Below, one piece after another: positions 11,493 through 34,347 of a DNA stretch of 64,000 bases. Source of the stretch: Desulfatiglans sp. (GTDB lineage Bacteria > Desulfobacterota > DSM-4660 > Desulfatiglandales > HGW-15); assembly GCA_012513605.1 (NCBI GenBank), contig JAAZBV010000037.1:29027-93026 (forward strand). Reading direction: 5' to 3'. Position numbers and translations under genes: made by a program. Numbering within the stretch: position 1 is the stretch's first letter; each line of letters opens with the position of its first letter. The notes under the pieces were generated by a model. That model saw nothing but the letters and a program-made list of their open reading frames with translations. It ran no database searches and was not told where the DNA came from.

Positions 11493-11827
11493 CTTGATCC
11501 CGCTCCTTTTAAGTAAAGATATTTATCTCTCAATCATGCATGAACTAAAAATAAGTAATAATTAAATACCAGCAGGTTTATAATCTTTAATAATATTTTT
11601 TATCAATATATTTTTTTAGGGTAGTAGTAAATATTTGTGAAGTGAATGGAGGGATGGGATTTTCAGGTTGGGTTAAGCGAAGCAACCCAACGATTTTTCG
11701 GTTCAAAAAATGCCTCATCCATTGTTTTTAAGCGACCATTTCCTTTTTTCACATATTGTTAATAAACAGTTGCTTTACACCTTCCATAATTGTACAATCC
11801 AATAGTACAATTAAGCAGGAGATTAAT

Positions 11828-12058
11828 ATGAAAACAGTAGCTGTAAGTGAACTGAGAGATAATTTAATGACTTTTATAAAAAAGGTAAAGTCAGGGGAAA
11901 ATTTTATTGTAACATCAAGGGGCCATGAAGTAGCTAAACTTGTACCTGTAGAAAATAAAAAACAGATGGCAAAAGAAAGGCTTAAAGAGCTTCAAAAGAC
12001 TGCCTATGTAGGAGATGTGCTTTCCTCTGTTGATGAGGAGTGGGAGGCTTTAAAATGA
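11828..12058 (+). CDS. Type II antitoxin, Phd/YefM family
   Basis: MKTVAVSELRDNLMTFIKKVKSGENFIVTSRGHEVAKLVPV is a typical Phd/YefM N-terminus. AGGAG lies 7 nt upstream of ATG 11828. ATGA overlap with the PIN gene. Confidence 0.85.
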   Translation: MKTVAVSELRDNLMTFIKKVKSGENFIVTSRGHEVAKLVPVENKKQMAKERLKELQKTAYVGDVLSSVDEEWEALK

Positions 12059-12450
12059 TTGTTGCCGATACCCATATTATAATCTGGGAGGCATTATCTC
12101 CTGAAAAAATATCAAAAAAGGCAAAGGCTGCAATTATGGAGGCTAATGAAAATGGTGGGATTATTTTCTGTGATATATCACTATGGGAAATTACCATGTT
12201 GATGAATCGAAACAGGGTAAAGGTAGATGCCTCATACAAAGAATTCATAAATCTGTTACTCAGTTCTAATAATTACGTTTTACAGGGCATTGATCCCGAT
12301 ATAGCTGATCTATCAACAAAGATATTTAATAACACGGAAAATGATCCAGCCGATAAACTGATAGCCGCCACAGCAGTTATCAAAAAAGCCAGCCTCGTAA
12401 CAGCAGACCGGACAATGCGATCTTCATCTGAAGTTGCTACTATATGGTAG
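12055..12450 (+). CDS. vapC: PIN-domain toxin (VapC-like ribonuclease)
   Basis: MIVADTHIIIWEAL... (first acidic residue of the PIN fold) and a C-terminal DPADKLIAATAV...LVTADR, typical of PIN toxins. Confidence 0.8.
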   Translation: MIVADTHIIIWEALSPEKISKKAKAAIMEANENGGIIFCDISLWEITMLMNRNRVKVDASYKEFINLLLSSNNYVLQGIDPDIADLSTKIFNNTENDPADKLIAATAVIKKASLVTADRTMRSSSEVATIW

Positions 12451-12478
12451 GTTGTGCTATGCGAAGAAACCCAATTTT

Positions 12479-13067
12479 TTAATGGCAGTATTGATCATAA
12501 TTCAAATTAATTTCTGTTATTGCAGTATCTTTGTATTTTTCGCAAGGATAAATATCAATGATTTCAAATTTTAAAATTACTGTTTCTTTATTACTATTTA
12601 CAGTATCAATGAGGAATGATTGTAGTTGGTAGGTATCTTTTAACTCAAGAATGTATTGCGAATTATTGTTTACATATAATTTAATTGTCTTTACCCTTGA
12701 GTTCTCTTTCAATGGACTCACAGATACCATAATCGGTCTTTCCTTCAACCCAAGCTATATTAAATTTCAGATCACATACATTTTCCGGTCTGTATGTTAT
12801 TCCACTATTTGTTGTTTTTAATGAAGAAGAAGCTTTTGCATTTATTGTGTTACCGCAACAATACCAGCTACAACCCTGATAATCGATTTCGTTGAGGTCT
12901 TTTTCATTTATTGGGAATTCCTGCATTATCTCCAATTTATATTCTTTATCAAGCAGCTGATGAGGTGTTAGGCTTGGATAAATAATTTTTAGATTTTCAC
13001 TAGAATATCCTTCTTTTGGTATTAAAAAGATGAAAAGAAAGATTAGAATAGTTTTTATTTTATTCAT
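12479..13067 (-). pseudogene. Secreted beta-sandwich (discoidin/NADase-type glycan-binding-like) protein split by a frameshift
   Basis: ORFs 12681..13094 and 12479..12748 overlap in different frames. The first has signal peptide MNKIKTILIFLFIFLIP and ends ...NIAWVEGKTDYGICESIE. The second continues ...ENSRVKTIKLYVNN...FEIIDIYPCEKYKDTAITEINL. The two read as halves of one domain. Confidence 0.45.
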
Positions 13068-13077
13068 AGATGGGTTA

Positions 13078-13344
13078 CTAAAGCTGCTGTGCAAATTTTT
13101 TATTTACTGAGGGATGATGATTAATGCCTAATAAACCATCAATAGAGATGTCTTCATCAAGAAGGGGCCAATGGATTCCATACCCGGAAGGAGAAATTAC
13201 ATATGAATTCAATTCTTCATCGGAGGCATCTTTAAGAACAGAAGATATCTCACTCAAAGGGAAGCTTCTATCCTTTCCATCTATTTTTATTAATAGATTA
13301 TCACCCTCAAACTTTATATTTTCTATTTTATGATACTTGCTCAT
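13078..13344 (-). CDS. DUF2442 domain protein
   Basis: 88 aa. The C-terminal GYGIHWPLLDEDISIDGLL is the DUF2442 signature as I recall it. ATGA overlap with the upstream DUF4160 gene. Confidence 0.75.
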   Translation of the reverse strand: MSKYHKIENIKFEGDNLLIKIDGKDRSFPLSEISSVLKDASDEELNSYVISPSGYGIHWPLLDEDISIDGLLGINHHPSVNKKFAQQL

Positions 13345-13598
13345 TTATTAAGCCTCCGTTGGAACTCTCCCCATTGCTCTTCTATATATTCAAAATGATC
13401 AAATATGATTTTTCTTATTTGCCTTTGGTCATTTGGAGACATATTATACGAAAATTCTTCATTAATATCAAAATGCTCTTTATCAAGCCAATATTTACAT
13501 TCCATATCGCCTTTTCTACAATGAATATGGATAGGTTCATTTCCCTCATTCGCATAGAAGAAAAGTCGCCAGCCTAAAATAGTAAGTATTGTTGGCAT
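13341..13598 (-). CDS. DUF4160 domain protein
   Basis: Start taken at ATG 13598 (MPTILTILGWRLFFYANEGNEPIHIHCRKGDMECKYWLD), the typical DUF4160 N-terminus. The ORF-track start at 13673 is an upstream extension. Confidence 0.75.
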   Translation of the reverse strand: MPTILTILGWRLFFYANEGNEPIHIHCRKGDMECKYWLDKEHFDINEEFSYNMSPNDQRQIRKIIFDHFEYIEEQWGEFQRRLNK

Positions 13599-13763
13599 AA
13601 TAATAGCCTTGTTTTCTATATCATATAATAATAAATTCAAGAATTCCGGCGATCTCGATATTTCCACTAACATCTAAAAGATGATCCGGATATTCACAAT
13701 AACATATAGAATTTTCAAACAGTTTCATGTTGAAGAATTGGAATAATAGCTACATTCAATATG

Positions 13764-13803
13764 GTAAACCGTCATGCCCGCGAAGGTTGGCATGACGGTT
13801 TAC
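13764..13803. repeat. Perfect 15-bp-stem hairpin gtaaaccgtcatgcc-cgcgaaggtt-ggcatgacggtttac
   Basis: Arms verified by eye as exact reverse complements. It lies 19 nt downstream of the stop of the small NTF2-like gene (minus strand). No T-run follows, so it is REP-like rather than a classical terminator. Confidence 0.6.
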
Positions 13804-13821
13804 TAATCTAATAATACTTCT

Positions 13822-14574
13822 CTATACCGACTTTACCAGCCTGTCAGGGCCAAATGGTTCTGCCGGAAACACCTTTGAAAATATGGGTATAGAGATTGGC
13901 TTTGCATATGACTGACCAGGTTTATAATCTGCCTTTGCAAAGGTCTTGTATTCAAGCCTCTCTATCTTCCATCCCTTGATATCTTTTACATAAGACACCT
14001 CATATACACCAGCTTCCCACCATTTTCTGATACCTTCACCCTGAAGTCGTGCCATTTTTACAAGCGTCGAATCTGAATCAATTGGCGCACCGACCTGTAT
14101 GGAATAGGTGAATATGGCCTTTGCTGATCTCTGATCAGGGGATATCTCTACCCTATCCTGCTCAGGTTTAAAATCAATCCCTGGTGCATGATTTATTTTT
14201 CTACCGGTCATCCCGGAGGCAAAACAGTTACAGAAGAGACGTTTTATACCGGAAGTGCCCTTAAAGAGCCCTCCATTAAAAACAACCTCTGCATTGTCAG
14301 TGAACATGGCTGGTATCTCACTGTACCTTCCTTTATCCAGCAGCTCTTCATATTGTTTATGAAGCACATTGATAATTTTTTCATTTTCAAGTATAGTTAT
14401 CTGTTTTGCAAGATCGTCTATATTTGTTTTTTTATCACTGCTGAACAGGGTCTTTGCATAACCCGGTACAGTCGCAGCAGCAACCGCAGACATACCGGCC
14501 CCGACCTTCCAAATAAAGGAGCGGCGGCCTCTGTCAGCCTGCATATCGTCTGTTTGAGACTTTAATATAGCCAT
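13822..14574 (-). CDS. Tat-signal NTF2/SnoaL-like protein, small partner of cassette A
   Basis: Start at ATG 14574, 1 nt after the large gene's TAA, with AAAGGAG 6 nt upstream. MAILKSQTDDMQADRGRRSFIWKVGAGMSAVAAATVPGYA is a twin-arginine signal (RRSFIWK). The mature part has an NTF2-like pattern (YEELLDKGRY...FTDNAEVVFNGG). Confidence 0.7.
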   Translation of the reverse strand: MAILKSQTDDMQADRGRRSFIWKVGAGMSAVAAATVPGYAKTLFSSDKKTNIDDLAKQITILENEKIINVLHKQYEELLDKGRYSEIPAMFTDNAEVVFNGGLFKGTSGIKRLFCNCFASGMTGRKINHAPGIDFKPEQDRVEISPDQRSAKAIFTYSIQVGAPIDSDSTLVKMARLQGEGIRKWWEAGVYEVSYVKDIKGWKIERLEYKTFAKADYKPGQSYAKPISIPIFSKVFPAEPFGPDRLVKSV

Positions 14575-14575
14575 A

Positions 14576-16357
14576 TTAAACTCCTTTCTTTTTCTTTGGG
14601 CCATAAAACTCCCTGATATTAAAGCAACCGATATGACGCCCGAGCGCCCCTACAACACCCAGGTTAACCCCAGTCGCTCCGCCTGAAAAACCAAAACCGC
14701 AGTCATGGGTAACCTTGGTATTGATCAGTTCAATCATCTGGGCGCCATTACAGGCCTCCTCATTCTGACAGAACAAATAGACACCCTCACGAAGTTTTAC
14801 ATATATACAGGGAGAACACCACTGGGCGCCCATTGTCTGGTTTGCAGTAAAGATTGTCCATGACATTGAATGGGGAGAGGTATAAAGATGCATGGAGGTC
14901 ATCTGGTCAGAGTATGACCATGAAAATGCATGACCTACCAGCTCATCTGTAAATTCATGGCGCACATACTGGGGGGGCTCAAGACCTTCCATCTCGCAGA
15001 CGCCAAAAATGGCCCTGTATGTTGTCTCATTGCCGTAATACTTTGTGCCCATATGTGAATGTATGCATGTGGTGAGACCGTTTGTAAGGTCAACAGCCAT
15101 CTTGACAGATGCACGGGGCTTGCTGTCTGTAAGCATATGAGCAAACCATGCAAGGTTATCATCCCCTTCATAGACCCGGCAAGGCTCCTCATGCCATTTA
15201 TTTTCACCCTCTTCCATATACCTGAGTTTATATTTTTCAGGAAACTCATAATGGCGCACAGGCCCACCATTGTCATAACGAAGTATAAACTTTTTCCCGA
15301 CCAGGATATCAGAATATGGCATATTGTTTATGGCCATCATCTGAGGCGCTGCACCCTCTGTGCCTCCAAATTTTATCGTATTTTTCAGGGCTGCCTCATG
15401 TACCTCTTCATCAGTCATGTATTTGAAGGTCCTTGCAGGCCTGTATGTCATCCTCTGCCATTTCCCAGGGATTGTAGGGTCACCAGGGGCCTGGTAAACC
15501 ATGCCGCTCTTGCCATGCTCATCAAAGGGTTCAAGAAAGGCAAGCTGACCCACAACCTTGCCTTCACCCCTGAACATATAGTATTCCAGTTCATCCTTCT
15601 CATTAAATCCAAGGCGAACACCAGCCTGTGTACATTCAAACAGATCACATACAAAGGATGTGAACATGCCGGAAAATTCGCACTCTGTCTTGTCATGAAT
15701 AAAGATGTGGTGATTCACACGTACATAGTCCGAAGGAGCGACATAGCTAAGGTCATCTGCCTGGCGGGTAAGATCAACAAAGTTTGTATTGGCAACAGAG
15801 GCATATAACTCCAGCACTTCATGACCAGTATCCTGCTTCCAGTACAACCCCTTGCCCTCCAATCTGTTTGTAAGATGATGAAGCTCTTTCGGGGCCTCCT
15901 GCCCTGCAACCTCAACATAACCGAAATATAACTGACGCTGAACCTCCCTGTCATCTACGACTATCGGGTCTCCGCCAAGGGTCGGCTCTGTTCTGCCTGT
16001 GGAGAGTCCGACTTCAATAACTGTTACAAGATTAGTATCCTGATCAATATATACATTATATCCCCTCTGATCTTCAGGCATCATATGAGAGAAGAAAATC
16101 ATCTGCCTGAGTGTGAGAGCGCCGTATCCCGCCTTGATCTTTTTCCCGCCATTCTCAGAGAATGTCAGCCTGTTTTTGTCATCAAACTTGTATTCAAGCA
16201 CAGGGCCATTCTGGGTGATGATCTTGATAGATTTGCCCTTAAGCACATCCGATAGATCGGATTTACTTTTTGGTCCGGCCTCGGTTGCCTTGAGGGCCTT
16301 TCCTATCTGATCTTTCGTTAATTTTGTATACTTGAATCGATGCATCGGAATATTCAT
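14576..16357 (-). CDS. 593-aa signal-less protein with four lipocalin/MoaF/PAD-like repeats, large partner of cassette A
   Basis: AAGGAGAG RBS before ATG 16357. L-x-G-K/H motifs at residues 39, 166, 352 and 473 are each followed by alternating beta-strand-like segments. No signal peptide or TM segment. Paralog of 18669..20480. Confidence 0.6.
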   Translation of the reverse strand: MNIPMHRFKYTKLTKDQIGKALKATEAGPKSKSDLSDVLKGKSIKIITQNGPVLEYKFDDKNRLTFSENGGKKIKAGYGALTLRQMIFFSHMMPEDQRGYNVYIDQDTNLVTVIEVGLSTGRTEPTLGGDPIVVDDREVQRQLYFGYVEVAGQEAPKELHHLTNRLEGKGLYWKQDTGHEVLELYASVANTNFVDLTRQADDLSYVAPSDYVRVNHHIFIHDKTECEFSGMFTSFVCDLFECTQAGVRLGFNEKDELEYYMFRGEGKVVGQLAFLEPFDEHGKSGMVYQAPGDPTIPGKWQRMTYRPARTFKYMTDEEVHEAALKNTIKFGGTEGAAPQMMAINNMPYSDILVGKKFILRYDNGGPVRHYEFPEKYKLRYMEEGENKWHEEPCRVYEGDDNLAWFAHMLTDSKPRASVKMAVDLTNGLTTCIHSHMGTKYYGNETTYRAIFGVCEMEGLEPPQYVRHEFTDELVGHAFSWSYSDQMTSMHLYTSPHSMSWTIFTANQTMGAQWCSPCIYVKLREGVYLFCQNEEACNGAQMIELINTKVTHDCGFGFSGGATGVNLGVVGALGRHIGCFNIREFYGPKKKKGV

Positions 16358-16449
16358 TTTCTTCTCTCCTTTTTCAAAATTGATTTTGGTTTATCTCTGT
16401 TGTAAATAATCCTTGGATGTCTTTACAGGTTCTTTATTTTTTAATGTTG

Positions 16450-17598
16450 CTACTTTTCCCCTGACATCAAATTGACTATGCTGAAATATGCCTTTTTGGG
16501 CCTCATTTCACGGTCAAAGAGCAGGGGATAGTCTGTTCTCCCCGGTACAGGGAAATTATTTTTCCAGGATATGCCGTCATGCAGCCCCCAGAATGTGACC
16601 CTGCTGACCTTATCTTTATGCCTGTTAAAGATGGTGAAGATATCACTGTATCTCTTTGCCAGTTCGTCAGCGACTGATTCAGGAAGACCATCCTTATATG
16701 GATTCATCTCCTGATTATTTTCATGCCTTATACCGATATCGGCTGAGGGTGTATTCGTCCAGGGGCTGGGCAGTACAGAGACATCCAGCTCTGTAAACAT
16801 GACCTTAACACCCAGCTCTGAAAAATCCCTTATAGTGTTTTCAATCTCGATCAGTTCAGGGAATTTCATGTCCCAGTGCGCCTGAACGCCTACTGCATCT
16901 ATCCTTAACCCCTTTTCCTTTAGTTTTTTAACTATCCTGACTGCCCCTGCACGCTTTTCAGGTATGACAAGGTTGTAGTCATTATAATAGAGTTCAGCAT
17001 CCGGGTCTGCCATGCGGGCATATTCAAATGCCTTTTCTATAAACTCATCACCGGCGATTTTATAAAAACCAGATTGCCTCATGGTGCCATCTTCATTTAA
17101 TGCCTCATTCACCACATCCCATCCATGCACCTTACCCTTGTACCTTCCTGCAACAGTAAAGATATGATCCCTGATCCTGTTAAAAAGGGTCTCCTTATCA
17201 ACCTGGTCATTAGAACCCTCTTTTGTAAATACCCCTTGCCCGAGCTGGCTGTGCCATACCAGTGTGTGTCCTATCAGCTTTACATTATTTGCCTGTGCAA
17301 ATTCTGCAATCTTGTCTGCCCTTTCAAACCTGTATTGATCAAGGGCAGGATGCAATGAGCCCCACTTCATCTCATTTTCAGGTGTGACGGCGCTAAAATG
17401 GCTCTTTATCAGCTCAGAGGAAACCGGGTTATCAAGAAGCCCGGGAAAGATCGCTGCGCCAATAAGAAAATTATCCTTGTAATAATCCTTCAGCCCTTTC
17501 TCTATATCACCGCTATCCGAGGGTTTCAGATTGCAGGATAAAAAAAGTAAAAGTAAAAGAGGGCTAATGTACAGGATTACATGTTTAAGACTTTTCAT
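16450..17598 (-). CDS. Endo-1,4-beta-xylanase, glycoside hydrolase family 10, lipoprotein
   Basis: TPENEMKWG, GHTLVWHSQ, WDVVNEAL (acid/base Glu) and MFTELDVS (nucleophile Glu). The N-terminus MKSLKHVILYISPLLLLLFLSC has a lipobox. The alternative start at 17628 would add 10 aa. Confidence 0.9.
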   Translation of the reverse strand: MKSLKHVILYISPLLLLLFLSCNLKPSDSGDIEKGLKDYYKDNFLIGAAIFPGLLDNPVSSELIKSHFSAVTPENEMKWGSLHPALDQYRFERADKIAEFAQANNVKLIGHTLVWHSQLGQGVFTKEGSNDQVDKETLFNRIRDHIFTVAGRYKGKVHGWDVVNEALNEDGTMRQSGFYKIAGDEFIEKAFEYARMADPDAELYYNDYNLVIPEKRAGAVRIVKKLKEKGLRIDAVGVQAHWDMKFPELIEIENTIRDFSELGVKVMFTELDVSVLPSPWTNTPSADIGIRHENNQEMNPYKDGLPESVADELAKRYSDIFTIFNRHKDKVSRVTFWGLHDGISWKNNFPVPGRTDYPLLFDREMRPKKAYFSIVNLMSGEK

Positions 17599-17720
17599 TC
17601 TGTCTGATTTTAATATGAATCTTATCATCCTTCATAACCTGCCTTTTATATTTATTGTGATAACTGCCTATCATCCATAAAAAATATTCAGGGACAGTGA
17701 ATAAATTTGTTTTCATCCAA

Positions 17721-17885
17721 AAACTGTCGTTTTTGGATTTCCACCCTCCGTAGCAGAGCTACTGCGGAGGACGGGCAAGCAATCAGCATTCAACTTTCAG
17801 CAAAAGGCATTCAAAAGAAAGAGTTAGCTGAAAGCTGATCGCTGACTGCTGAAAGCTCCATCCAGAATTTGTCTCTTTCTGGATG
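17721..17885 (+). repeat. ~165-bp structured intergenic repeat, copy 1 (family B)
   Basis: Collinear with 51866..52030. Shared stretches: aaactgtcgtttttggatt, ctactgcgga, ggcaagc, cagcattca, aaaaggcattcaaaa, aaagagtt.gctga, ctgaaagc.ccatccaga, ctctttctggatg. Hairpins at both ends (atccaaaaac/gtttttggat and catccaga/tctggatg). Confidence 0.8.
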
Positions 17886-17893
17886 AACGCAAA

Positions 17894-18667
17894 TTAAGCC
17901 TGCACAGGAACCAGAATCTTATCCGGGCCATTCGGCTCCCCAGGGTAAACCTTTGAAAAGGGAACTGATGATACAGGCATGGAGTATGTCTTACCCGGCC
18001 TGTAATCTGTCTTTGCCACGGCCTGATATTCCAGCCTCTTTATTTTCCAAGCGCCGTTTAATGCATCCTTTATACATGAGATATGGCATGTCCCACCTTC
18101 CCACCACCTCATGACCCCTCCGCCCTGAAGACGCGCCATACTTACCAGAACCGAATCGGAAGCCAGAGGGGCGCCGATCTGCATGGAATATGAAAATTGT
18201 GCCTTTGCTGAACCACGATCACCTGATACCTGCACCTGATCCTGATCAGACTCACAGGCATTCTCAAACCCTGGCGCAGGTGAAATCCTTTTTCCTGTCA
18301 TACCTGACCTGAAGAGACCGCAATAAAGACGTCTTAGACCGGTCTCTTTTCCTGTATACACACCACTGTTAAAGATTACCTCGCCATCATTTGAAAAGAG
18401 TTCTACCAGGGTTTCATATGCACCCCTGTCCAGTAAAGATTCATAGGTGTGATAAAGGTCATGGACTGATTTTTCATCTTCAAAAATCCTGACCCTGTTA
18501 TTTAAACGCTCCATCTCTGATTCCATGCCCTTATCTTTTTTAAAGAGAGGCACTGCGACAGCCGGAACAGCAGTGGCCAGCAGTGCTGACACAGCAGCCC
18601 CAGCCTTCCAGATGAATGACCTGCGGCCGGCATTCGGCTGATCAATGGATTTTGATGTGGTATCCAT
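17894..18667 (-). CDS. Tat-signal NTF2/SnoaL-like protein, small partner of cassette B
   Basis: ATG 18667 lies 1 nt after the large gene's TAA, with AAAGGAG upstream. MDTTSKSIDQPNAGRRSFIWKAGAAVSALLATAVPAVA is a Tat signal. Collinear with the cassette A small protein. Confidence 0.7.
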   Translation of the reverse strand: MDTTSKSIDQPNAGRRSFIWKAGAAVSALLATAVPAVAVPLFKKDKGMESEMERLNNRVRIFEDEKSVHDLYHTYESLLDRGAYETLVELFSNDGEVIFNSGVYTGKETGLRRLYCGLFRSGMTGKRISPAPGFENACESDQDQVQVSGDRGSAKAQFSYSMQIGAPLASDSVLVSMARLQGGGVMRWWEGGTCHISCIKDALNGAWKIKRLEYQAVAKTDYRPGKTYSMPVSSVPFSKVYPGEPNGPDKILVPVQA

Positions 18668-18668
18668 A

Positions 18669-20480
18669 TTATGCTCCTTTCCTTTTTGCGTTAGGTCCAA
18701 AATACTCTTTGACTTTATATTGCCCGAGGTCACGCGCAATAGCGCCGATTACGCCCAGGTTGATCCCGTCTCTGCCGCCGTGAAAGCCAAACCCATCCGC
18801 ATGCATGGTCTTATTATTTTCAATAATACATGTCTCAGCGCCATTACATGCCTCTTCAACAAGGTCAAATATGTATACCCCGTCCCTGAGTTTCACATAA
18901 ATGGCAGGCGCACACCACTGTATACCTAGTGTCTGGTCCTGCATGTAGATTGTCCATGCCGAGGAATGGGGGGTGGTATAAAGATGCATTGAGGTCATAT
19001 TGTCAGAATATGTCCTTGTAAATCCGCAGCCTACCAGCTCATCCGTAAACTCATGGCGCATGTATTTTGCAGACTGGACGCCTTCCATCTCTGCAACACC
19101 AAAGAATGCCTCATATACGACTTCATCACCGTAATAGGGAGAGCCGACCTTTGAATAAATGCATGTAGTAAGGCCGTTTGTAAGATCGAGGGCGATCTTT
19201 ACGCTTGTTGGCACTTTAATCCCGGTAAGCATATGTGCAAAGAAGAGCAGATTTTCATCAGCCTCAAATGCCCTGTAGGTCTCCTTCTGCCATTTTGAAT
19301 CACCCTCATTTTTCCATTCAAGGTTATAGGCGTCTGATACCCTGTAATTGAAAACAGGGCCGCGGTCAAACCGGAGAGTAAACTCTTTTCCTTTGAGAAG
19401 GTCACTGTATGGAAGTGTGTTGCCTCCCATCATGCCGGCCTGGGCCTGTGGGGTGTCTGGGTTATCTGTAAAGGTCACAGTCTTTGTTTCAGCAATCTTG
19501 TTTATCTCGTCCTGTGAGATATATTTAAGATTTCTGGCTGGGCGGTAAATAATCCTATCGCCGCCTTTGGGCACTTTTGGTGCAGGCTGATCAGCAGCGC
19601 CGGGTTTAGGAGCCCCAAAGCCCATATTTATCTTTTCACCGTGTTCATCAAATGGCTGAAGGGCTGTAAGGTGACCCACAACCTTGCCTTTGCCTCTGAA
19701 CATATAATATTCCAGCTCGTCTCTTTCATTAAAGCCAAGCCTCATACCTATCTGTGTTTCCGTGAACAGGTCAACAGCATACATGGTCAGTATGCCAGAA
19801 AATTCACACTCGGTTCTGTCATAGATAAACATGTTATCATTAACAAGTATATAATCTGATGTTGCACAATAGCTCAAATCATCCACATGCCTTGTCAGCT
19901 CAACAAAGTTCGTGGTGCATACAGAGGCATAAAATTCAAGGGTTTCAATGCCTGTATCCTGTTTCCAGTGCATGCCCTTACCCTGTATCCTGTTTGTAAG
20001 TCGATGTAGTTTTTCCGGTGCGGCTTTGCCAGTCACATCTACATAACCGTAAAATATCTGGCGCACTGCCTCCCTGTCATCCAGTACTATTTCGCCGCCC
20101 ATGCCTCCCTGCTTTATTCCGCTTGAAAGAGAGACATCAAATACCGTAACAAGATTGGTATCAAGGTCGTAAAACACATTATAACCCCTCTGTTCATTCG
20201 GGATCATATGAGAGAATAAAACCATCTGCTTGAGTGTAAGCGCACCATAACCGGTCTTAATCTTTTTTCCGCCGTTTTCAGAGATGATAAGCTCCTTTTT
20301 ATCCCTGAAACTGTACTCAAGGACAGGGCCATCCTTTGTAATAATCTTTAAGGACTTGCCCGAAAGAATGTCTGAAAATTCAGAAACGCATTTGGGCCCG
20401 GTTTCAGCAGCCTTGAGTTTTTTACCTATTTCATCCTTTGTCAGTTTTGTATACTTGAAACGGTGCATTGGTATGTTCAT
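18669..20480 (-). CDS. 603-aa signal-less four-repeat lipocalin/MoaF/PAD-like protein, large partner of cassette B
   Basis: First 16 residues are identical to the cassette A large protein (MNIPMHRFKYTKLTKD) and it is collinear throughout. AGGAGGAG RBS. Only 43 nt downstream of the GPH transporter stop. Confidence 0.6.
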   Translation of the reverse strand: MNIPMHRFKYTKLTKDEIGKKLKAAETGPKCVSEFSDILSGKSLKIITKDGPVLEYSFRDKKELIISENGGKKIKTGYGALTLKQMVLFSHMIPNEQRGYNVFYDLDTNLVTVFDVSLSSGIKQGGMGGEIVLDDREAVRQIFYGYVDVTGKAAPEKLHRLTNRIQGKGMHWKQDTGIETLEFYASVCTTNFVELTRHVDDLSYCATSDYILVNDNMFIYDRTECEFSGILTMYAVDLFTETQIGMRLGFNERDELEYYMFRGKGKVVGHLTALQPFDEHGEKINMGFGAPKPGAADQPAPKVPKGGDRIIYRPARNLKYISQDEINKIAETKTVTFTDNPDTPQAQAGMMGGNTLPYSDLLKGKEFTLRFDRGPVFNYRVSDAYNLEWKNEGDSKWQKETYRAFEADENLLFFAHMLTGIKVPTSVKIALDLTNGLTTCIYSKVGSPYYGDEVVYEAFFGVAEMEGVQSAKYMRHEFTDELVGCGFTRTYSDNMTSMHLYTTPHSSAWTIYMQDQTLGIQWCAPAIYVKLRDGVYIFDLVEEACNGAETCIIENNKTMHADGFGFHGGRDGINLGVIGAIARDLGQYKVKEYFGPNAKRKGA

Positions 20481-20523
20481 TTTCTCTCCTCCTGATAAAT
20501 GTTATAGTACTAATCCCTGATTA

Positions 20524-21951
20524 TTAAGCCTCTGCCCTTCGTTTTGAAAGGTCTTCTTCTATCTTGAGCATAACACTGCTTTTTAATGGATAGAATAACA
20601 TCACGAGCCCGCCAAGAACCCCAAAGATAGCAGGGTAAAAGCTCATTACCATTCTAATGCCAAATATTGATTCGCTTGACTGTGCGACATTTGCCACAAA
20701 CCCGTAATAACCTAATATCCCGTTTACAAAGCTGCCGCCAAAGGCAAGACCCAGTTTCAGGGCAAACAATGATGCAGCCATTATAAGCCCGGTTGATCTT
20801 CTTCCGAATTTCCATTCGCCATAATCGGCAGTGTCTGTGTAGATTGCCCACTGAAGCACAGAGACCACCCCCATAAGGAATGAAACTGCAATATTAAGCC
20901 CGAAAATCATTAGTACATTATGGGGCTGCACATAATAAAAGGCGCATGAGATCACAGCGCTGGCGATAAGCGCACCGGTATAGGCATTCTTTTTGTCCAG
21001 TGTTTTTGCAAATGACTGTGCCATAAGCGCACCCACAAGGGTTGAAGCGCTGCCAACAGATGCAAACCATTCGGTAAAAGAGCTGATTGAAAGATTTACA
21101 TTGAAGATTTCCTGTTCAAGCACATAATACTTAAAATAGTAAGGGGTAGATGTCCCGCGCATTACCGCATACAGAAGCTGAAAAACAGTTGCAATGGCTA
21201 TTATCACCCAGGGTGTGTTCTTAAAGAGGTATTCTAAATCCTTGATCGAATTTTTCTGCTGTGATTTGGGAGGCTGCACCCTCTCCTTTGTAGAAAAATA
21301 GGTGAACACAAAAAGAATGATAGCAAGCACTCCAAAGGCCACCATTGCCCAGGTCCAGCCGATCTGCTCGTTACCCTGTCCGAAATGGCCGACAAGGGTC
21401 AGGGTAAATTTTGAAACTATAAGCTGCCCTATAAATGCGATAACAAATCTGTATTGTGATGCGCTTGTACGCTCCTGCGAGTTGGGAGTCATAACCCCCA
21501 TAAGGGCAGAATAAGGGACGTTTACCGCTGTATAAAGCATCATCAGGAAGGTATAGGTTATATAGGCATAAATGATTTTACCGATGTTCCCCAGATCAGG
21601 TGTAAAGAATGTCACAACCCCGCATATAGCGAGGACAGGGGCAAGAAGAATGATATAGGGACGAAACTTTCCCCACCGGGATTCTGTCCTGTCGGCGATC
21701 ATGCCCATTATAGGGTCATTAATCGCATCCCAGATCCTGGTGACAAGAAACATCCAGAACACTGCGCTGGGGGATATGCCGAATACATCTGTGTAAAAAT
21801 ATGAGATGTAGAGCATAAACATCTGGAAATAGAGATTGGAGGCCGCATCACCAAGGCCGTATCCTATCTTTTCTTTTGCGGGTAATCTTCTGGATGATTC
21901 TCCATTTGTGGAATAACTGACGTCTGGGGTTCTAGCTTCAGAATTAGTCAT
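20524..21951 (-). CDS. Glycoside-pentoside-hexuronide (GPH):cation symporter, MFS superfamily
   Basis: GYGLGDAASNLYFQMFMLYISYFYTDVFGISPSAVFWMFLVTRIWDAINDPIMGMIADRTESRWGKFRPYIL is the canonical MelB/XynT/YicJ N-terminal signature. 12 hydrophobic segments. Confidence 0.9.
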   Translation of the reverse strand: MTNSEARTPDVSYSTNGESSRRLPAKEKIGYGLGDAASNLYFQMFMLYISYFYTDVFGISPSAVFWMFLVTRIWDAINDPIMGMIADRTESRWGKFRPYIILLAPVLAICGVVTFFTPDLGNIGKIIYAYITYTFLMMLYTAVNVPYSALMGVMTPNSQERTSASQYRFVIAFIGQLIVSKFTLTLVGHFGQGNEQIGWTWAMVAFGVLAIILFVFTYFSTKERVQPPKSQQKNSIKDLEYLFKNTPWVIIAIATVFQLLYAVMRGTSTPYYFKYYVLEQEIFNVNLSISSFTEWFASVGSASTLVGALMAQSFAKTLDKKNAYTGALIASAVISCAFYYVQPHNVLMIFGLNIAVSFLMGVVSVLQWAIYTDTADYGEWKFGRRSTGLIMAASLFALKLGLAFGGSFVNGILGYYGFVANVAQSSESIFGIRMVMSFYPAIFGVLGGLVMLFYPLKSSVMLKIEEDLSKRRAEA

Positions 21952-22229
21952 ATGTCACCTGATTTTGTAGTTTTTGGATACGATATAAGAGATATCGTTC
22001 AATTTGATCACGGGAGTATAGAGTAAATAAAAAGGCATGTCAAACAAAGTATCGCATACTCGTTAATAACCTTTTTTATACCGGGTTACCTTCATTTTTT
22101 TAATAGGAAGAGGGCTGAGTAAACAAATTGGTTAAAAAATTTTATATCCATTTTCCGGGGGTTACCCCTGCGCCTCTTGTCCCGCCGTAGTTTGAAAGTT
22201 TTTAACGAAGGCGGATGCGCCCTTAGCCC

Positions 22230-25200
22230 TTAGCCCTTCGCCTCTCTCAACAAATACTTCTCATATGCCGCCCTTACCCTCTTAATACATTCATCAAGCC
22301 TTTGAAGCAGCTTTTCTCCGTCAGCTTCAATGCCAAGCATCTTTTTTGCAAGGGTGTTTATCTCGCTCTTTTCAGCAGGGATGGTATGGGTCTGTCTGTC
22401 TTCAAGTATCTGCAGATAGTGTTCTATCCTTCTTAAGAATATGTAGTCATCCTTAATTATATTCGCAGCCTTATCATCAAAAATGGCTGCCTCTGTCAAT
22501 GATTTAATAGCAAGCAGGGTATTGCTTTCTGTCTCAAGTCTCTTTTCACAACCATATATAAGCTGAAGCCCCTGTACCATAAACTCCACATCCCTGATCC
22601 CTCCGCTACCGGACTTCACATCTATCCCTGCATTGAGCCCCTGAGAGCTGTTTTTTACTGCCTTTTTTCTCAGCCTCTCTATCTCATTAACAACCATTCC
22701 CCTTTTCCATGGTTTCATGATAAAGGGTTTAAGGCTGGAGAGGAACTCATATCCCAGCGTAATATTACCCGCAACCGGCCTCATCTTGAGGGCTGCCTGT
22801 TTCTCCCAGAATGATGCAGAACTTCGGTAATACTCTATAATGGATGGTATTGACTGGACAATCTCTCCTGAGCTTCCAAATGGTCTGAGCCTCAAGTCCA
22901 CCCTGTATGCATACCCCTCTTCTGTATGAGATGAAAGAGATGCCCTGATATCCTCAAGTATCTTCCCTGCTATCTCCCTGCGTCCGTTTCCGGCCTCGCC
23001 ATCAGGTTTAAAAACACCTATCAGATCAATATCAGAGCTGTAATTGAGTTCATTTCCTCCCAGCTTTCCAAAGGCCATAACACAGAAATAATCAAGGGGC
23101 GATGCCTCATGGGGCTCATAATCCTCTATCCTGCATTTGACAGACTGCTCAAGAACAACCTGTGTGCATGCCTCTGCAAGAATAGATAGCTCATGCATTA
23201 TTATCCTGCTCGATACGCCCATGTAAATGTCTCTTGTGCCTATCCTTAATATCTCACGCCGCCTGAACCTCCTGAGTTTGTTGAGCCAGTCCCTCTCTTC
23301 GCGGCAGCTATCAGCCGCCTTCCTGAGCTCATGTTCAAGGTCTTCCCTTTTCCTGATGGAGTTGAGAAGCTCAGGGTTCATGAGCCAGTCAAAAAAACCC
23401 GGGTATCTTATAAGGGTATCAGACAAAAACTGGCTGTTAGAAAAGATTGCCAGAAGCATCTCAAGATGCATCGGTTGAGACAAAAGAACATTGTAATGAA
23501 ACTCAGGGCTGGCAAGAGAACGTATATATCGTTCCCAGTTATTAAGGGCCATATCAGGATCAGGTGTTCTTTTTATAATGTCCCATGCAAGTATGGCAAG
23601 CCTTCCGAATATCTCCCTTCGGCTTCCACCCTCACCCGCAAGCCCCTGAAGGTTTACATAGGCCCGGGCCGGTTCCTTAATCCCGCTTTCAGATAAGATA
23701 CGGCCCCTGATCTCAGGAGACATGGTGTCAGATAGAATAACATCAGCTATTGTCCCTGTGTCATGCCTTGGGAGAGAATCGAGCCCGAAATATTTTTCAG
23801 CAAATACCCTTACTGCTGCCATATGGGTTTCAAGGTCTATATAGAGCTGCTGTGCCGGGGTTATAGCGCCGCCATATCTGTATCCCATCCTCCTTGCAAG
23901 GTGTTCAAATTCAGGGGTCTCTGTCTCAGGCAGGAAAAGATCAAGGGCAGAACCTCTAAGCATCCTGAGTCCGTTTATGAGTTCACGCATGAACCTGTAT
24001 GCCTCAGTAAGCCTGTCATGCACTTCATAGTTCATGAACCCGTTATCCTTGAGGGCATTAAGGGCATTATGAATGCTGTATGTTCGAATATCCTTCGAAC
24101 TCTTCCCGTACATGACCTGTAAGGTCTGCACCCCGTATTCAAGATCAACAAGCCCACCAGGGCTGAACTTTGCATTGAGCTTGCCCATTGCAGCCTTTTC
24201 CTTTATCTGCCTCTCTCTGAGTTCTCTTATCTCCTCAAAATCTATTCTGTTTGAGAAATAAACCACCTCATCGCGTATACGCTCTATGCGGCCTCCAAAC
24301 TCCCTGTCGCCGCCTATGCACCGCATTCTCACAAGTGAGAGCATCTCAAATGAATGTGCTTGACCTCCTGTGCCGTAATACTGGCAGTAACTCTCCATGC
24401 TGACCGCAAGAGGGCCTGATTTACCATGGGGTCTAAGCCTTAGATCAATCTGAAATATGCCCTCTCGCTTTGCCTCAATAAAATGGAAAATACCCCTGAC
24501 CATGAGTTCAAAAAACTCGGTATTTGTAATATTTTTTTCACCATCGGTTCTGCCCCTGTCGCTGTAAATAAAAAGGATCTCAAGGTCTGATGCATACCCT
24601 ATGGCCTCCCCTCCCAGCTTGCCAAGGCCCATAATGGCATATCTCGCCTCCAGGCCGGAATCGGTCTTTGGGATACCGTACTGCCTGACAAGATCCTCAT
24701 ACACAATATCAGCGGTCCTGTTTATAACAAGCTCTGCCAGTGCTGTAAGTTTTCTTGAAAGGAACCTGAAATCCAGGTCAGGGTTAAGGATATGGTCAAG
24801 ATCAATACGAAATATCTCCTGATCCTTGAACCAGTTTAAGACCCTCTTTTTTGACTCAAAATCCACAGCCTCATCAATTGCCTTATCAAGCCTCTCAGAT
24901 AGATTTTCTGTTGATTTGCTGATCATTGTCTTCTTTTCTACGTTGTCGAATACGGTCAGAAGTGATTCGTACTGAAGCCTGATAAAATCCTCCCACAAAA
25001 AATCGCTTGCGCCCAGGAGCCTTGCAAGGTCCTTAAGGTTTCTCCCGTCAGTAAGGTGCCTGAACCACTCTTCCCTGAATGGCTGTTTGACGATATCCTT
25101 TATAATAAATTCAAAACGTGAAAGTGCCGCATATGGGTCAGGGGCCTTTGCAAGAAAATAGGTAAACTGCTTTGTAAGCAGCACAGAGAACTTGATCCTC

Positions 25201-32170: not shown

Positions 32171-33127
32171 TTATTTTAAAGCCCTTTTAACCGCATTATC
32201 CCTCTCCGCGCTAAACCTTTTTACTACAGATGCAGAGATAATGGAATCAAACCCGTGTGTGGCCCCAGGGTATACATGCAGCTCAGTCGGGACACCTGCC
32301 TGCAACAGCCTCTGTGCATACTCTATATCCTCATCAAGAAACAGGTCCAGTTCGCCCACAGCTATATAGGCTGGCGGCAGGCCCGATAGATCCTTTGCCC
32401 TTGATGCAGCAGCATATGGAGATACAATGCCATCTTTTATCGAATCACCTAAGTATGCCTTCCATGCAAAGATATTCTTTTCACGATCCCATGTACGCAG
32501 GTCTGTTATGGCATGGCTTGAAGGAGTAATGTTACGATCATCTATCATGGGGTAAATGAGGAGCTGAAATGATAATGCTATCTCTCCCCTGTCCCTTGTC
32601 ATAATTGCAAGCCCTGCTGCAAGCCCGCCACCTGCGCTCCCTCCTCCTATGGCCACCCTTGTTTTATCTATGCCCAGGCTTTCCGCATTATTTACCATCC
32701 ATTTGAGGCTCGCATAACAGTCTTCAACAGGCGCAGGGAATGGGTTTTCAGGCGCAAGCCTGTAGTTTGTGGAGACCATAACACACCCGGTATTTACACA
32801 CATCGAGCGCATGGTGTAATCATCCGCTGTAAGGTCTCCAAGCAGATACCCTCCGCCATGTATCCAGAGCATGGCTGGTCTTTTCCCAGTTTCTGCCTCT
32901 GGTGTATATACTCTTACAGTAATATCCGGTGCACCCTTTGGTCCGGGGATTGATAAATCCCTTGAACTGACACCTTTTACAGCAGGCATCATCGATACCA
33001 TCCGGCCAAATATCTCATCACTCATCTTCCTTGCTGTATCGAGATCATCAAAATTTAAAGAGCCATCCGCAGGGATCATCTCAAGCGCCGGGGCAAGCTC
33101 CGGGTCTATCCGTTTCATAAGATCCAT
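32171..33127 (-). CDS. Alpha/beta hydrolase, hormone-sensitive-lipase-like esterase
   Basis: WIHGGGY (oxyanion HGGG) and GGGSAGGGLA (G-x-S-x-G nucleophile elbow). 318 aa. Confidence 0.85.
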   Translation of the reverse strand: MDLMKRIDPELAPALEMIPADGSLNFDDLDTARKMSDEIFGRMVSMMPAVKGVSSRDLSIPGPKGAPDITVRVYTPEAETGKRPAMLWIHGGGYLLGDLTADDYTMRSMCVNTGCVMVSTNYRLAPENPFPAPVEDCYASLKWMVNNAESLGIDKTRVAIGGGSAGGGLAAGLAIMTRDRGEIALSFQLLIYPMIDDRNITPSSHAITDLRTWDREKNIFAWKAYLGDSIKDGIVSPYAAASRAKDLSGLPPAYIAVGELDLFLDEDIEYAQRLLQAGVPTELHVYPGATHGFDSIISASVVKRFSAERDNAVKRALK

Positions 33128-33198: not shown

Positions 33199-34347
33199 TT
33201 ATACCTCTTTCAATTTCCCCACAAGCATACACGCTGCGACAATAATCACCCCTGTACCGAGTATGCCTGCCTGAAAGCTCCATCTATCTGCTATTGCACC
33301 TAAGACTATGGGTGAAAGCCCCGGTCCTATGATCCCTGACATGCTCATCAGTATGCCCGTAAAGACACTGCGTTCACTCAATGTTGTAAGCCTTGATATG
33401 GCAACTAACCCAGCAGGGAAAAACACAACACTGAAGGTCGCCTGAAGGAATAATACTGAGCTTAAGAGCCAGGGGGCGCTGATTACTGCTATAGCTATTG
33501 TTGTTATTCCCGCTGCAAACAGCAGGACAAAAAGCAGTTTTTTGAGGTTGAACCGGTCTATAATAAAACCCACTGAGATCATGGCGATAAACCCACCGAT
33601 CCTGGAAATACCGAATATGGTGTTGGCAGTCTCTATCGGGATCCCCCGCTCCTTTACCAGGAACAGGGGAATAACATTGAATATACCCATGCTGGCAACT
33701 GCGCATGAACTCCACAGTGCGGTCATGATCCAGAAATCCTTACTTTTTACAATCTCCATCATACCGCCCTTTTCTATCTTTTCCGGTCTCGGGTCAGGGG
33801 ATGTAACATGGAGTATGACACCAAGTATCAGGCATGCAGCGCTCATGATCAGAAAGATATTTTTCCAGTTCATTACAGAGATGATCATGGTAACCATAAA
33901 CGGGACAGTAAGCATGCCGAAGCCTGCAGCAGTCTCATGAACGGATATTGCCTTACCCCAGTTGTCACGGCTGAAGACCGCGGTTATGAGAGGTATTCCG
34001 CATGGTAGGTAAATGCCTGAAGCGAGCCCCAAAAGAAAAGCAATTGAGGCAAAGGATACATAGGATGTGGCAAAGCGCATTATAATAAAGGCAATGGTCA
34101 TACCGTAAAAGGAGACCAAAATGGAGCGTTTGTAACCTATCTTAAGTGACATGAAACCGGCATAAAAGACAGATATGGTATTCCCTATCCAGAAACAGAA
34201 AAAGAGAACGCCTGCCATTGCATGGGTAATGGCAAATTCATCCTCTATCAGTGGCATCAGTGGTGAGGTGATGGATTTAGCGATAAAGTTCACATACCAC
34301 AGTGTCCAGAACAGGAGTAAAAGAAAAATCTTCATAAAAATACTCAA
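33199..34347 (-). CDS. MFS transporter
   Basis: 382 aa with about 12 hydrophobic segments. The start is uncertain: 34347 is a TTG, and an ATG lies at 34335. Confidence 0.75.
   Translation of the reverse strand: MSIFMKIFLLLLFWTLWYVNFIAKSITSPLMPLIEDEFAITHAMAGVLFFCFWIGNTISVFYAGFMSLKIGYKRSILVSFYGMTIAFIIMRFATSYVSFASIAFLLGLASGIYLPCGIPLITAVFSRDNWGKAISVHETAAGFGMLTVPFMVTMIISVMNWKNIFLIMSAACLILGVILHVTSPDPRPEKIEKGGMMEIVKSKDFWIMTALWSSCAVASMGIFNVIPLFLVKERGIPIETANTIFGISRIGGFIAMISVGFIIDRFNLKKLLFVLLFAAGITTIAIAVISAPWLLSSVLFLQATFSVVFFPAGLVAISRLTTLSERSVFTGILMSMSGIIGPGLSPIVLGAIADRWSFQAGILGTGVIIVAACMLVGKLKEV

Follow-up and report, generated by a model that had tools for sequence, protein, structure and literature searches.

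A recurrent gene pair for a tandem MoaF-type protein and a twin-arginine-signal NTF2-like protein, candidate subunits of an exported enzyme acting on plant phenolics

In a 64,000-nucleotide stretch of a Desulfatiglans sp. metagenome-assembled genome (MAG), the whole of which is called the window below, we analysed a cassette of two adjacent genes that occurs twice and may encode a heteromeric periplasmic enzyme. The open reading frame (ORF) listing places both copies in a block of six co-directional genes on the minus strand. First comes a GPH-family (YagG-like) glycoside/xyloside:cation symporter of 475 amino acids (aa; 20524..21951; Pfam MFS_2 E = 1.8e-90; NCBIfam TIGR00792 gph, 385 bits against a cut-off of 231 bits, with YagG as the top-scoring model), followed by large2 (603 aa, 18669..20480) and small2 (257 aa, 17894..18667), a GH10 endo-xylanase (392 aa, 16450..17628; Pfam Glyco_hydro_10 E = 4e-99), and finally large1 (593 aa, 14576..16357) and small1 (250 aa, 13822..14574). 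The xylanase carries a lipoprotein-type signal (…LLLFLSC), its lipobox having been read off the translation. All four cassette ORFs lie on one strand, at the coordinates and in the order given by the initial annotation of this DNA, and the exact protein is in the database from a Desulfatiglans sp. MAG, annotated there as hypothetical.

The family was surveyed by scanning one genome per species, which yielded 77 loci, all in MAGs (L-numbers below denote loci). Their hosts belong to Desulfatiglandales/Desulfobacterales, Acidobacteriota, Gammaproteobacteria (Steroidobacteraceae), Bacteroidales and Chloroflexota; several genomes hold more than one locus, and one Desulfobacterales MAG holds six. 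With the window included there were 91 large genes, 89 of them scorable, and a small gene lay directly downstream on the same strand of 75 of the 89 (84%; 72 pairs intact), in an order that never varied. The reciprocal check agreed, as small-protein homologs on long contigs adjoin a large gene. The scorable large genes come from Desulfobacterota, Acidobacteriota, Gammaproteobacteria and Bacteroidota MAGs, and the co-occurrence of the two genes spans four phyla.

Within both cassettes the large gene ends in AAAGGAG-NN-TAA, a single base follows, and then comes the ATG of the small gene (GGAGCATAATATG at the small2 junction), which bears out the translational coupling proposed at the outset. The AAAGGAG element lies in the last codons of the large gene (14576-14584 and 18669-18677), where it specifies the nearly invariant Lys-Gly-Ala/Val at the C-terminus of its product, and it serves the small gene as Shine-Dalgarno sequence; the tripeptide is probably conserved because of this constraint at the nucleotide level. 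Among the 72 intact pairs the gap fell within −13 to +3 nucleotides (nt) in 65, being +1 nt in 45 (GGAG-NN(N)-TAA-N-ATG), −4 nt (ATGA) in 8 and −1 nt in 8. The retention of this stop/start junction over four phyla argues for a fixed stoichiometry of the two products.

The two large proteins are 58% identical over their full length (352 of 602 residues, BLASTP) and share their first 16 residues (MNIPMHRFKYTKLTKD), in line with the collinearity and the more than half identical positions first judged by eye; the small proteins are 48% identical (117 of 246 residues, E = 2e-86). An old duplication had been suggested, and the paralogs are indeed deep and ancient, but the event was not local. The window cassettes fall into two deep clades, large2 in clade 1, and each clade contains both Desulfobacterota and Acidobacteriota, which indicates ancient paralogous lineages that moved between phyla. 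Both genes are under purifying selection, with ratios of non-synonymous to synonymous substitution rates (dN/dS) against orthologs, a check recommended with the initial annotation, of 0.05-0.10 for the large and 0.10-0.28 for the small gene. The stronger constraint on the large subunit suggests that it is the main catalytic component.

The family is rare but widely transferred: members are ~70% identical across phyla and all annotated as 'hypothetical', and a search of 1.84 billion proteins at E ≤ 0.001 matched just 354 cluster representatives, ~10 of which are full-length four-barrel clusters (30-42% identity). The top full-length representative is just 42% identical, though many homologs of 60-100% identity exist; the query's own cluster is seemingly represented by a fragment (for example, matches of 105-134 aa with 74-85% identity). 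We also observed a four-barrel sister subfamily of ~572 aa, encoded just downstream of a normal pair and without a small partner of its own (L031 4086-5804; L061 11135-12856), which probably corresponds to the 572-574-aa clusters found at 36-42% identity in the representative search.

Domain searches assigned large1 to MoaF (80.4 bits, cut-off 23.3) and MoaF_C (34.0 bits, cut-off 22.1), both above the Pfam gathering thresholds, and large2 to MoaF (71.1 bits, E = 8.7e-20), with MoaF_C at 20.8 bits slightly below the 22.1 cut-off. The AlphaFold2 (AF2) model of large1, with 48 homologs in the input (predicted local distance difference test 85.6, predicted template modelling score 0.84), has four predicted beta-barrels at approximately residues 43-148 (A), 169-272 (B), 356-456 (C) and 476-579 (D). 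An hhalign comparison shows the N-terminal and C-terminal halves to be homologous (probability 98%, E = 1.6e-13, 25% identity): C is the counterpart of barrel A and D that of B, and A and B do not match each other. The large protein is thus a tandem duplication of a two-barrel MoaF module, so that the original description as a four-repeat protein fits the modelled barrels, while at the level of sequence there are two copies of one module. Its C-terminal half (residues 334-564) is a genuine MoaF_N plus MoaF_C module (PF10703/PF17409), and the top Foldseek match in the PDB was the uncharacterised Burkholderia 'MoaF' 4Q51, which spans one half (E = 4.4e-12; template modelling score (TM) normalised to target 0.73-0.76 across ~250 residues). 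A profile search of the PDB with the large family found nothing past 4Q51, and a sequence search agreed; compared with 4Q51, the large protein has the module duplicated in tandem and paired with an NTF2-fold subunit. No paper describing a function for MoaF was found in the literature searched, and NCBIfam holds no name for either protein.

The next Foldseek matches, barrel by barrel, were phenolic, ferulic and p-coumaric acid decarboxylases (PadC/PDC/FDC, calycin fold; probability 1.0, target-normalised TM ~0.5). These are remote likenesses, with 11-16% identity to the large protein, and PadC is one barrel of 161 aa whereas large1 carries four in a single chain of 593 aa, about 3.5 times the size. 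We compared residues using a PadC sequence checked against 2P8G, with catalytic residues that we take to be Tyr11, Tyr13, Arg41 and Glu64 (B. subtilis numbering). A local alignment of VKLREGVYLFCQNEE with VKLTEGVYKVSWTEP sets E533 on the catalytic Glu64 (short and not significant alone, E = 0.034), and the carboxylate-binding Tyr11/Tyr13 pair appears to be out of register. Within the family itself, 105 alignment columns reach 98% conservation or more in 89 sequences, among them those of H6, R7, H91, H160, H407, H467, H490, E225, E227 and E533; E225 is kept in 89/89 and E533 in 88/89 homologs. In the internal repeat alignment H91 stands opposite H407 and E225 opposite E533, and H467, H490, Y482, Y492 and E533 are also found in 4Q51. 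The N-terminus of the large protein (MNIPMHRFKYTKLTK) is not a signal sequence. The family start, M(N/D)IPMHRFKYTKLT, is conserved and likewise non-signal, and no signal peptide was found among the large proteins of the census.

The small proteins carry the signal that the large proteins lack. A motif RRSF[IMLF]xK, close to the twin-arginine translocation (Tat) consensus S/T-R-R-x-F-L-K and followed by ~17 hydrophobic residues and an AxA-like site, was read in 69 of the 72 intact small proteins (RRSFIWKAGAAVSALLATAVPAVA in small2), and in the other three, which are over-extended ORFs, the signal was recovered once the true start was set. Together with the Pfam assignment of the remainder to SnoaL_4 (E = 1.1e-11 for small1, 7.3e-12 for small2), this upholds the initial call of a Tat signal on an NTF2-like partner; the shared blocks RRSFIWK, SGMTG, MARLQG, WWE, RLEY and FSKV(F/Y)P are likewise all present. 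The AF2 model of small1 is disordered over residues 1-47 and confident in the NTF2 core. Its nearest solved relative is LdpA (8ABT; sequence E = 1.3e-21, Foldseek E = 3.6e-15, 32% identity), which accounts for all the top Foldseek matches, the next structures (LinA, scytalone-dehydratase-like proteins and BaiE) following at ~1e-6. The 8ABT alignment covers residues 49-247, including the extended C-terminal arm FP.EP.GPD (FP.xP.GPD as the motif common to both). The pair had been judged unassignable to any characterised enzyme, and no full-length match to a characterised two-subunit enzyme emerged from searches of PDB sequences and folds, Pfam, NCBIfam and the literature; the small protein is nevertheless a clear LdpA homolog and the barrels of the large protein resemble phenolic acid decarboxylases. 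As initially reported, we recognised no cofactor-binding motif in the pair.

LdpA and PcfL are gamma-formaldehyde lyases of sphingomonad lignin-dimer catabolism (PDB 8ABT-8ABW) and share the SnoaL_4 fold with the small subunit. LdpA uses Glu143 to ionise the phenol and to protonate the leaving group at the benzylic position, with an oxyanion hole made by Tyr35 and Tyr147 and with Tyr165 as proton relay; the base for C-C cleavage is His97 in a dyad with Asp40, which is essential by mutagenesis (PMC9942872). We read the equivalent columns from an alignment of 70 small subunits. Glu143 is Glu in 70/70 and Tyr165 is at least 90% conserved; the Asp40 position is D in 53 and N in 12, Tyr35 is Y in 47 and F in 21, and Tyr147 is Y in 46 and C in 21. 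small1 has the Glu143, Tyr35 and Tyr147 equivalents, whereas small2 carries Cys at the Tyr147 position. By this alignment small1 retains the whole putative quinone-methide-forming half-site of LdpA. The His97 column is occupied by P (20), L (18), a gap (8), A (6), I (6) and others, with Phe in small1, and since the equivalent of this essential base is lost, the small protein is not an LdpA-type deformylase, though it could nonetheless bind a p-hydroxyphenyl group or activate one. It also differs from LdpA in its origin from anaerobes and MAGs and in its 40-residue Tat signal and co-encoded large partner, LdpA being a cytoplasmic homotrimer active on diarylpropane or phenylcoumaran dimers; the Tat signal argues against a shared compartment.

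From these features we infer a physical complex, its co-export, a class of substrates and a type of chemistry. Each cassette would encode one heteromeric periplasmic enzyme, translational coupling providing the signal-less large subunit in fixed proportion to the small one. Such a ratio between a protein without a signal and a partner with a Tat signal suggests that the two assemble in the cytoplasm and that the folded complex is exported on the signal of the small subunit, as a 'hitchhiker'. The large subunit would be catalytic, through the pseudo-symmetric invariant His/His/Glu sets in the phenolic-acid-decarboxylase-like barrels of both halves, and the small subunit would contribute an LdpA-like NTF2 cone with a p-hydroxyphenyl-ionising Glu (plus Tyr residues in most members) but without the His for C-C cleavage. 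The chemistry of the complex would be of the acid-base type, independent of a cofactor (or with a simple metal), and directed at p-hydroxyphenyl compounds from plants. In this operon the likely substrates would be the phenolic or lignin-linked decorations that xylo-oligosaccharides carry when the GH10 lipoprotein releases them, and the GPH symporter would import the products. Phenolic chemistry is proposed because the nearest characterised relatives of both subunits use quinone methides on p-hydroxyphenyl substrates, and because the operon in the window is directed at xylan and aldehyde-handling genes recur near the pair. We put the probability of this full reading, a Tat hitchhiker heteromer in the periplasm acting on phenolic or lignin-linked decorations of plant hemicellulose, at roughly 0.4. 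The architecture taken alone, with a signal-less large and a Tat-signal small subunit assembled and exported together, is probably correct.

Export of the proposed kind is known from the Tat hitchhiker heteromers HybO/HybC, PaoABC and FAD-glucose dehydrogenase (with its gamma subunit), in which, as here, the genes are adjacent and the sole twin-arginine signal is on the small subunit. These systems assemble in the cytoplasm and are exported as folded complexes (PMC4273604, PMC6719666). They are redox enzymes with complex cofactors, whereas the present pair has no recognisable cofactor motif and combines calycin and NTF2 folds that are typical of cofactor-free enzymes. Another parallel is the alpha3beta3 Rieske dioxygenases, which set a structural trimer of NTF2-fold small subunits beside a larger catalytic subunit. 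Gene order and compartment differ there, which makes this an analogy only, and Pfam matched no Rieske or mononuclear-iron domain in the pair. By analogy with LdpA, which trimerises via the same C-terminal arm, an (alpha-beta)3 assembly is conceivable.

We also examined the gene neighbourhoods within ±8 kb of 78 loci, together with 104 ORFs immediately flanking the pair. Many of the loci are orthologous, so the counts overstate the number of independent occurrences. Carbohydrate genes comprised GPH symporters (9/78 loci), GH10 (7/78) and GH43-like enzymes (3/78). The GH10 loci are of the Desulfatiglandales type, and most have the order large2-small2-GH10-large1-small1, which is kept in L002, L003, L005, L007, L057 and L084. 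Three unrelated kinds of aldehyde-handling enzymes recur beside the pair in different phyla: aldehyde:ferredoxin oxidoreductase (AOR) at 6/78 loci (with genes in L069 6657-8711, L070 9877-11931, L012, L013, L058, L007 and L079), aldehyde dehydrogenase (ALDH) at 5/78 (L034, L036, L037, L038, L060) and a thiamine pyrophosphate (TPP) enzyme at 3/78 (L009, L010, L054/L079). In both L069 and L070 the AOR gene comes straight after a large gene without a small partner. At L079, L082 and L083 the pair is next to a TonB-dependent receptor or an outer-membrane barrel, a TonB-dependent receptor in the case of L082 and L083. The families best represented among the 104 flanking ORFs were MFS transporters (9, of which 6 GPH), TPP enzymes (3), AOR (3), TonB receptors (2), SSF transporters (2) and COesterase/BD-FAE proteins (2). 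The theme of these neighbourhoods is envelope-located processing of imported plant-derived material.

Secreted DUF8021 proteins occurred at 14/78 loci as single modules of ~330 aa or tandems of ~580 aa (L076 5532-16355, L077 12131-14273, L045, L048, L058, L039, L015, L022, L033 and L082/L083 6851-8584), and the literature search returned no functional work on them. L076 has five DUF8021 copies, and its large gene is without a small partner. As an alternative partner of the same fold, the DUF8021 neighbour was ruled out, since it is unrelated to the small subunit (hhalign E = 0.62).

Several results weigh against the proposed periplasmic phenolic enzyme. The Tat motif was called by eye, with the NCBIfam TAT model matching below threshold only. 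On the side of the large subunit, Pfam PA_decarbox gave no match at E ≤ 0.1 and the comparison of the large family with PadC was not significant (hhalign E = 0.034, probability 1.5%); on that of the small subunit, no His is among the residues listed at the His97 column of the 70 sequences, and LdpA His183 is not conserved either. Beyond the pair itself gene context is unconserved: no fixed third gene was found among the 104 flanking ORFs, where no family has more than nine members, and the linkage to GH10 is confined to relatives within Desulfatiglandales. Pairwise distances of large and small proteins are correlated (r = 0.66; Mantel test, 0 of 999 permutations); like the coupling and the adjacency, this gives a complex indirect support, but it could stem from co-inheritance alone. 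Finally, 14 of the 89 large genes have no adjacent small gene, so the large protein may also act alone in the cytoplasm. At 19 key positions (residues at least 98% conserved) these orphans match the rest of the family; the pair is a conserved module, but calling it obligate, as the initial annotation did, is too strong.

The invariant His/Glu sets could also bind metal, which would mean quite different chemistry. H91/H160/E225 and H407/H467/E533 would then be two sites of the 2-His-1-carboxylate type in an enzyme for, for example, a carbohydrate or another non-phenolic substrate, Tat export would allow the metal to be loaded before translocation, in the cytoplasm, with the small subunit as no more than an escort. 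We regard this as possible though on the unlikely side. It draws on the six invariant His and many invariant Asp/Glu over 89 homologs, on their alignment between the two halves and the presence of H467, H490 and E533 in 4Q51, on a small subunit that has few invariant polar residues and evolves faster, and on carbohydrate genes being the commonest informative neighbours. Neither Pfam nor NCBIfam matched a known metal-binding family, however, and an escort role leaves the LdpA Glu kept in 70/70 small subunits unexplained.

The orphan large genes and the cytoplasmic aldehyde-handling enzymes (AOR, ALDH, TPP enzyme) near many loci would also suit two independent proteins that share an operon, the NTF2 protein being exported alone and the large protein acting in the cytoplasm on an imported product. 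The conserved stop/start junction, with the fixed stoichiometry it implies, an adjacency of 84% and an order that never varies speak for a joint product instead, and the only evident reason for a cofactor-less small protein to need Tat would be export in folded form or as part of a complex; we consider separate action unlikely. A somewhat less likely reading still is a non-catalytic periplasmic complex that binds hydrophobic molecules, taking them over from receptors in the outer membrane and passing them to transporters. Ligand carriage is a frequent role of lipocalin-like barrels and of NTF2 cones, transporters are the top neighbours (MFS/GPH 9, SSF 2 and TonB receptors 2 of the 104 flanking ORFs), and TonB-dependent receptors adjoin the pair in L082 and L083. 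Binding proteins are normally exported by Sec, though, both subunits have enzymes as their nearest characterised relatives, and a dN/dS of 0.05-0.10 together with 105 near-invariant positions, many of them His, Arg, Glu or Asp, looks more like an enzyme than a carrier. That the pair are plain orthologs of a phenolic acid decarboxylase and an LdpA/PcfL formaldehyde lyase, as fold-level matches to both families might suggest, is highly improbable and is rejected on residues and architecture, given the missing catalytic His of LdpA, the lack of a PA_decarbox match, the different architecture at ~3.5 times the size of PadC, identities of ~32% and 11-16%, and the lack of a Tat signal or partner subunit in either known enzyme.

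The literature searched appears to describe neither the tandem-MoaF architecture nor its fixed pairing with a Tat-NTF2 subunit, nor any function of MoaF domains; both domain superfamilies and the hitchhiker principle are already known. A Tat-exported heteromer of two cofactor-free folds, if that is what the cassettes encode, would be an unusual use of the hitchhiker route, and the pair would offer a handle on the function of MoaF domains, for which none has been assigned so far. The hosts are anaerobic bacteria of sediment, digesters and peat. With its linkage to a xylanase and a xyloside symporter, a small subunit resembling a lignin-dimer lyase, decarboxylase-like barrels and these anaerobic hosts, the proposed phenolic enzyme is a concrete candidate for processing phenolic or lignin-linked hemicellulose without oxygen, a task to which, as far as we know, few enzymes have been assigned. 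A more specific version, speculative and improbable, would make the complex a periplasmic lyase or hydrolase that needs no cofactor and cleaves p-hydroxyphenyl units at their benzylic (alpha-carbon) bonds via a quinone methide; its candidate bonds, put forward just as tentatively, would be the benzyl-ether links that join lignin to carbohydrate on xylan, or else bonds within lignin or lignan oligomers. If it were true, anaerobes such as Desulfatiglandales and Acidobacteriota would have an oxygen-free route into lignified plant material, and multi-copy paralogs would differ in substrate.

The six-gene block is preceded by a sigma-70-like promoter candidate, TTGACA-17-TATACT (22015..22043, minus strand), which matches the consensus at 11 of 12 positions and is the top-scoring site of the minus strand within 13300..22400, being a consensus match only. 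No terminator-like sites were found between genes of the block on that strand. The gap between small2 and the GH10 gene is a structured spacer of 265 nt (17629..17893, minus strand; predicted RNA fold −98.1 kcal/mol, z = −7.5), in which inverted repeats with arms of up to 27 nt form four consecutive stem-loops. It is nearly identical in L002 and L084, one hairpin is missing in L057 and most of the element in L005, and an Rfam scan of 13000..22600, spacer included, gave no match. The spacer could be an intercistronic stabiliser, an attenuator or a small repeat element.

The genes that flank the block (GlnE, GlnA, DUF1846, a TRAP transporter and AAA ATPases) are unrelated to it. Just downstream of small1 lie pairs of small ORFs at 11756-12450 and 13078-13673 that look toxin-antitoxin-like by eye, namely an antitoxin-like ORF of 100 aa followed by a PIN-like ORF of 136 aa, and two overlapping ORFs of ~90-110 aa. 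GC content falls to 34% over 12001-14000, which, together with these ORFs, suggests that the end of the operon abuts a patch of accessory genes. An Abhydrolase_3 esterase that matches BD-FAE (the bifunctional feruloyl/acetyl-xylan esterase family) adjoins an MFS transporter (32171-33127 and 33199-34347, both on the minus strand) at a distance of about 12 kb from the cassettes, and it may be a further hemicellulose-decoration gene of the genome.

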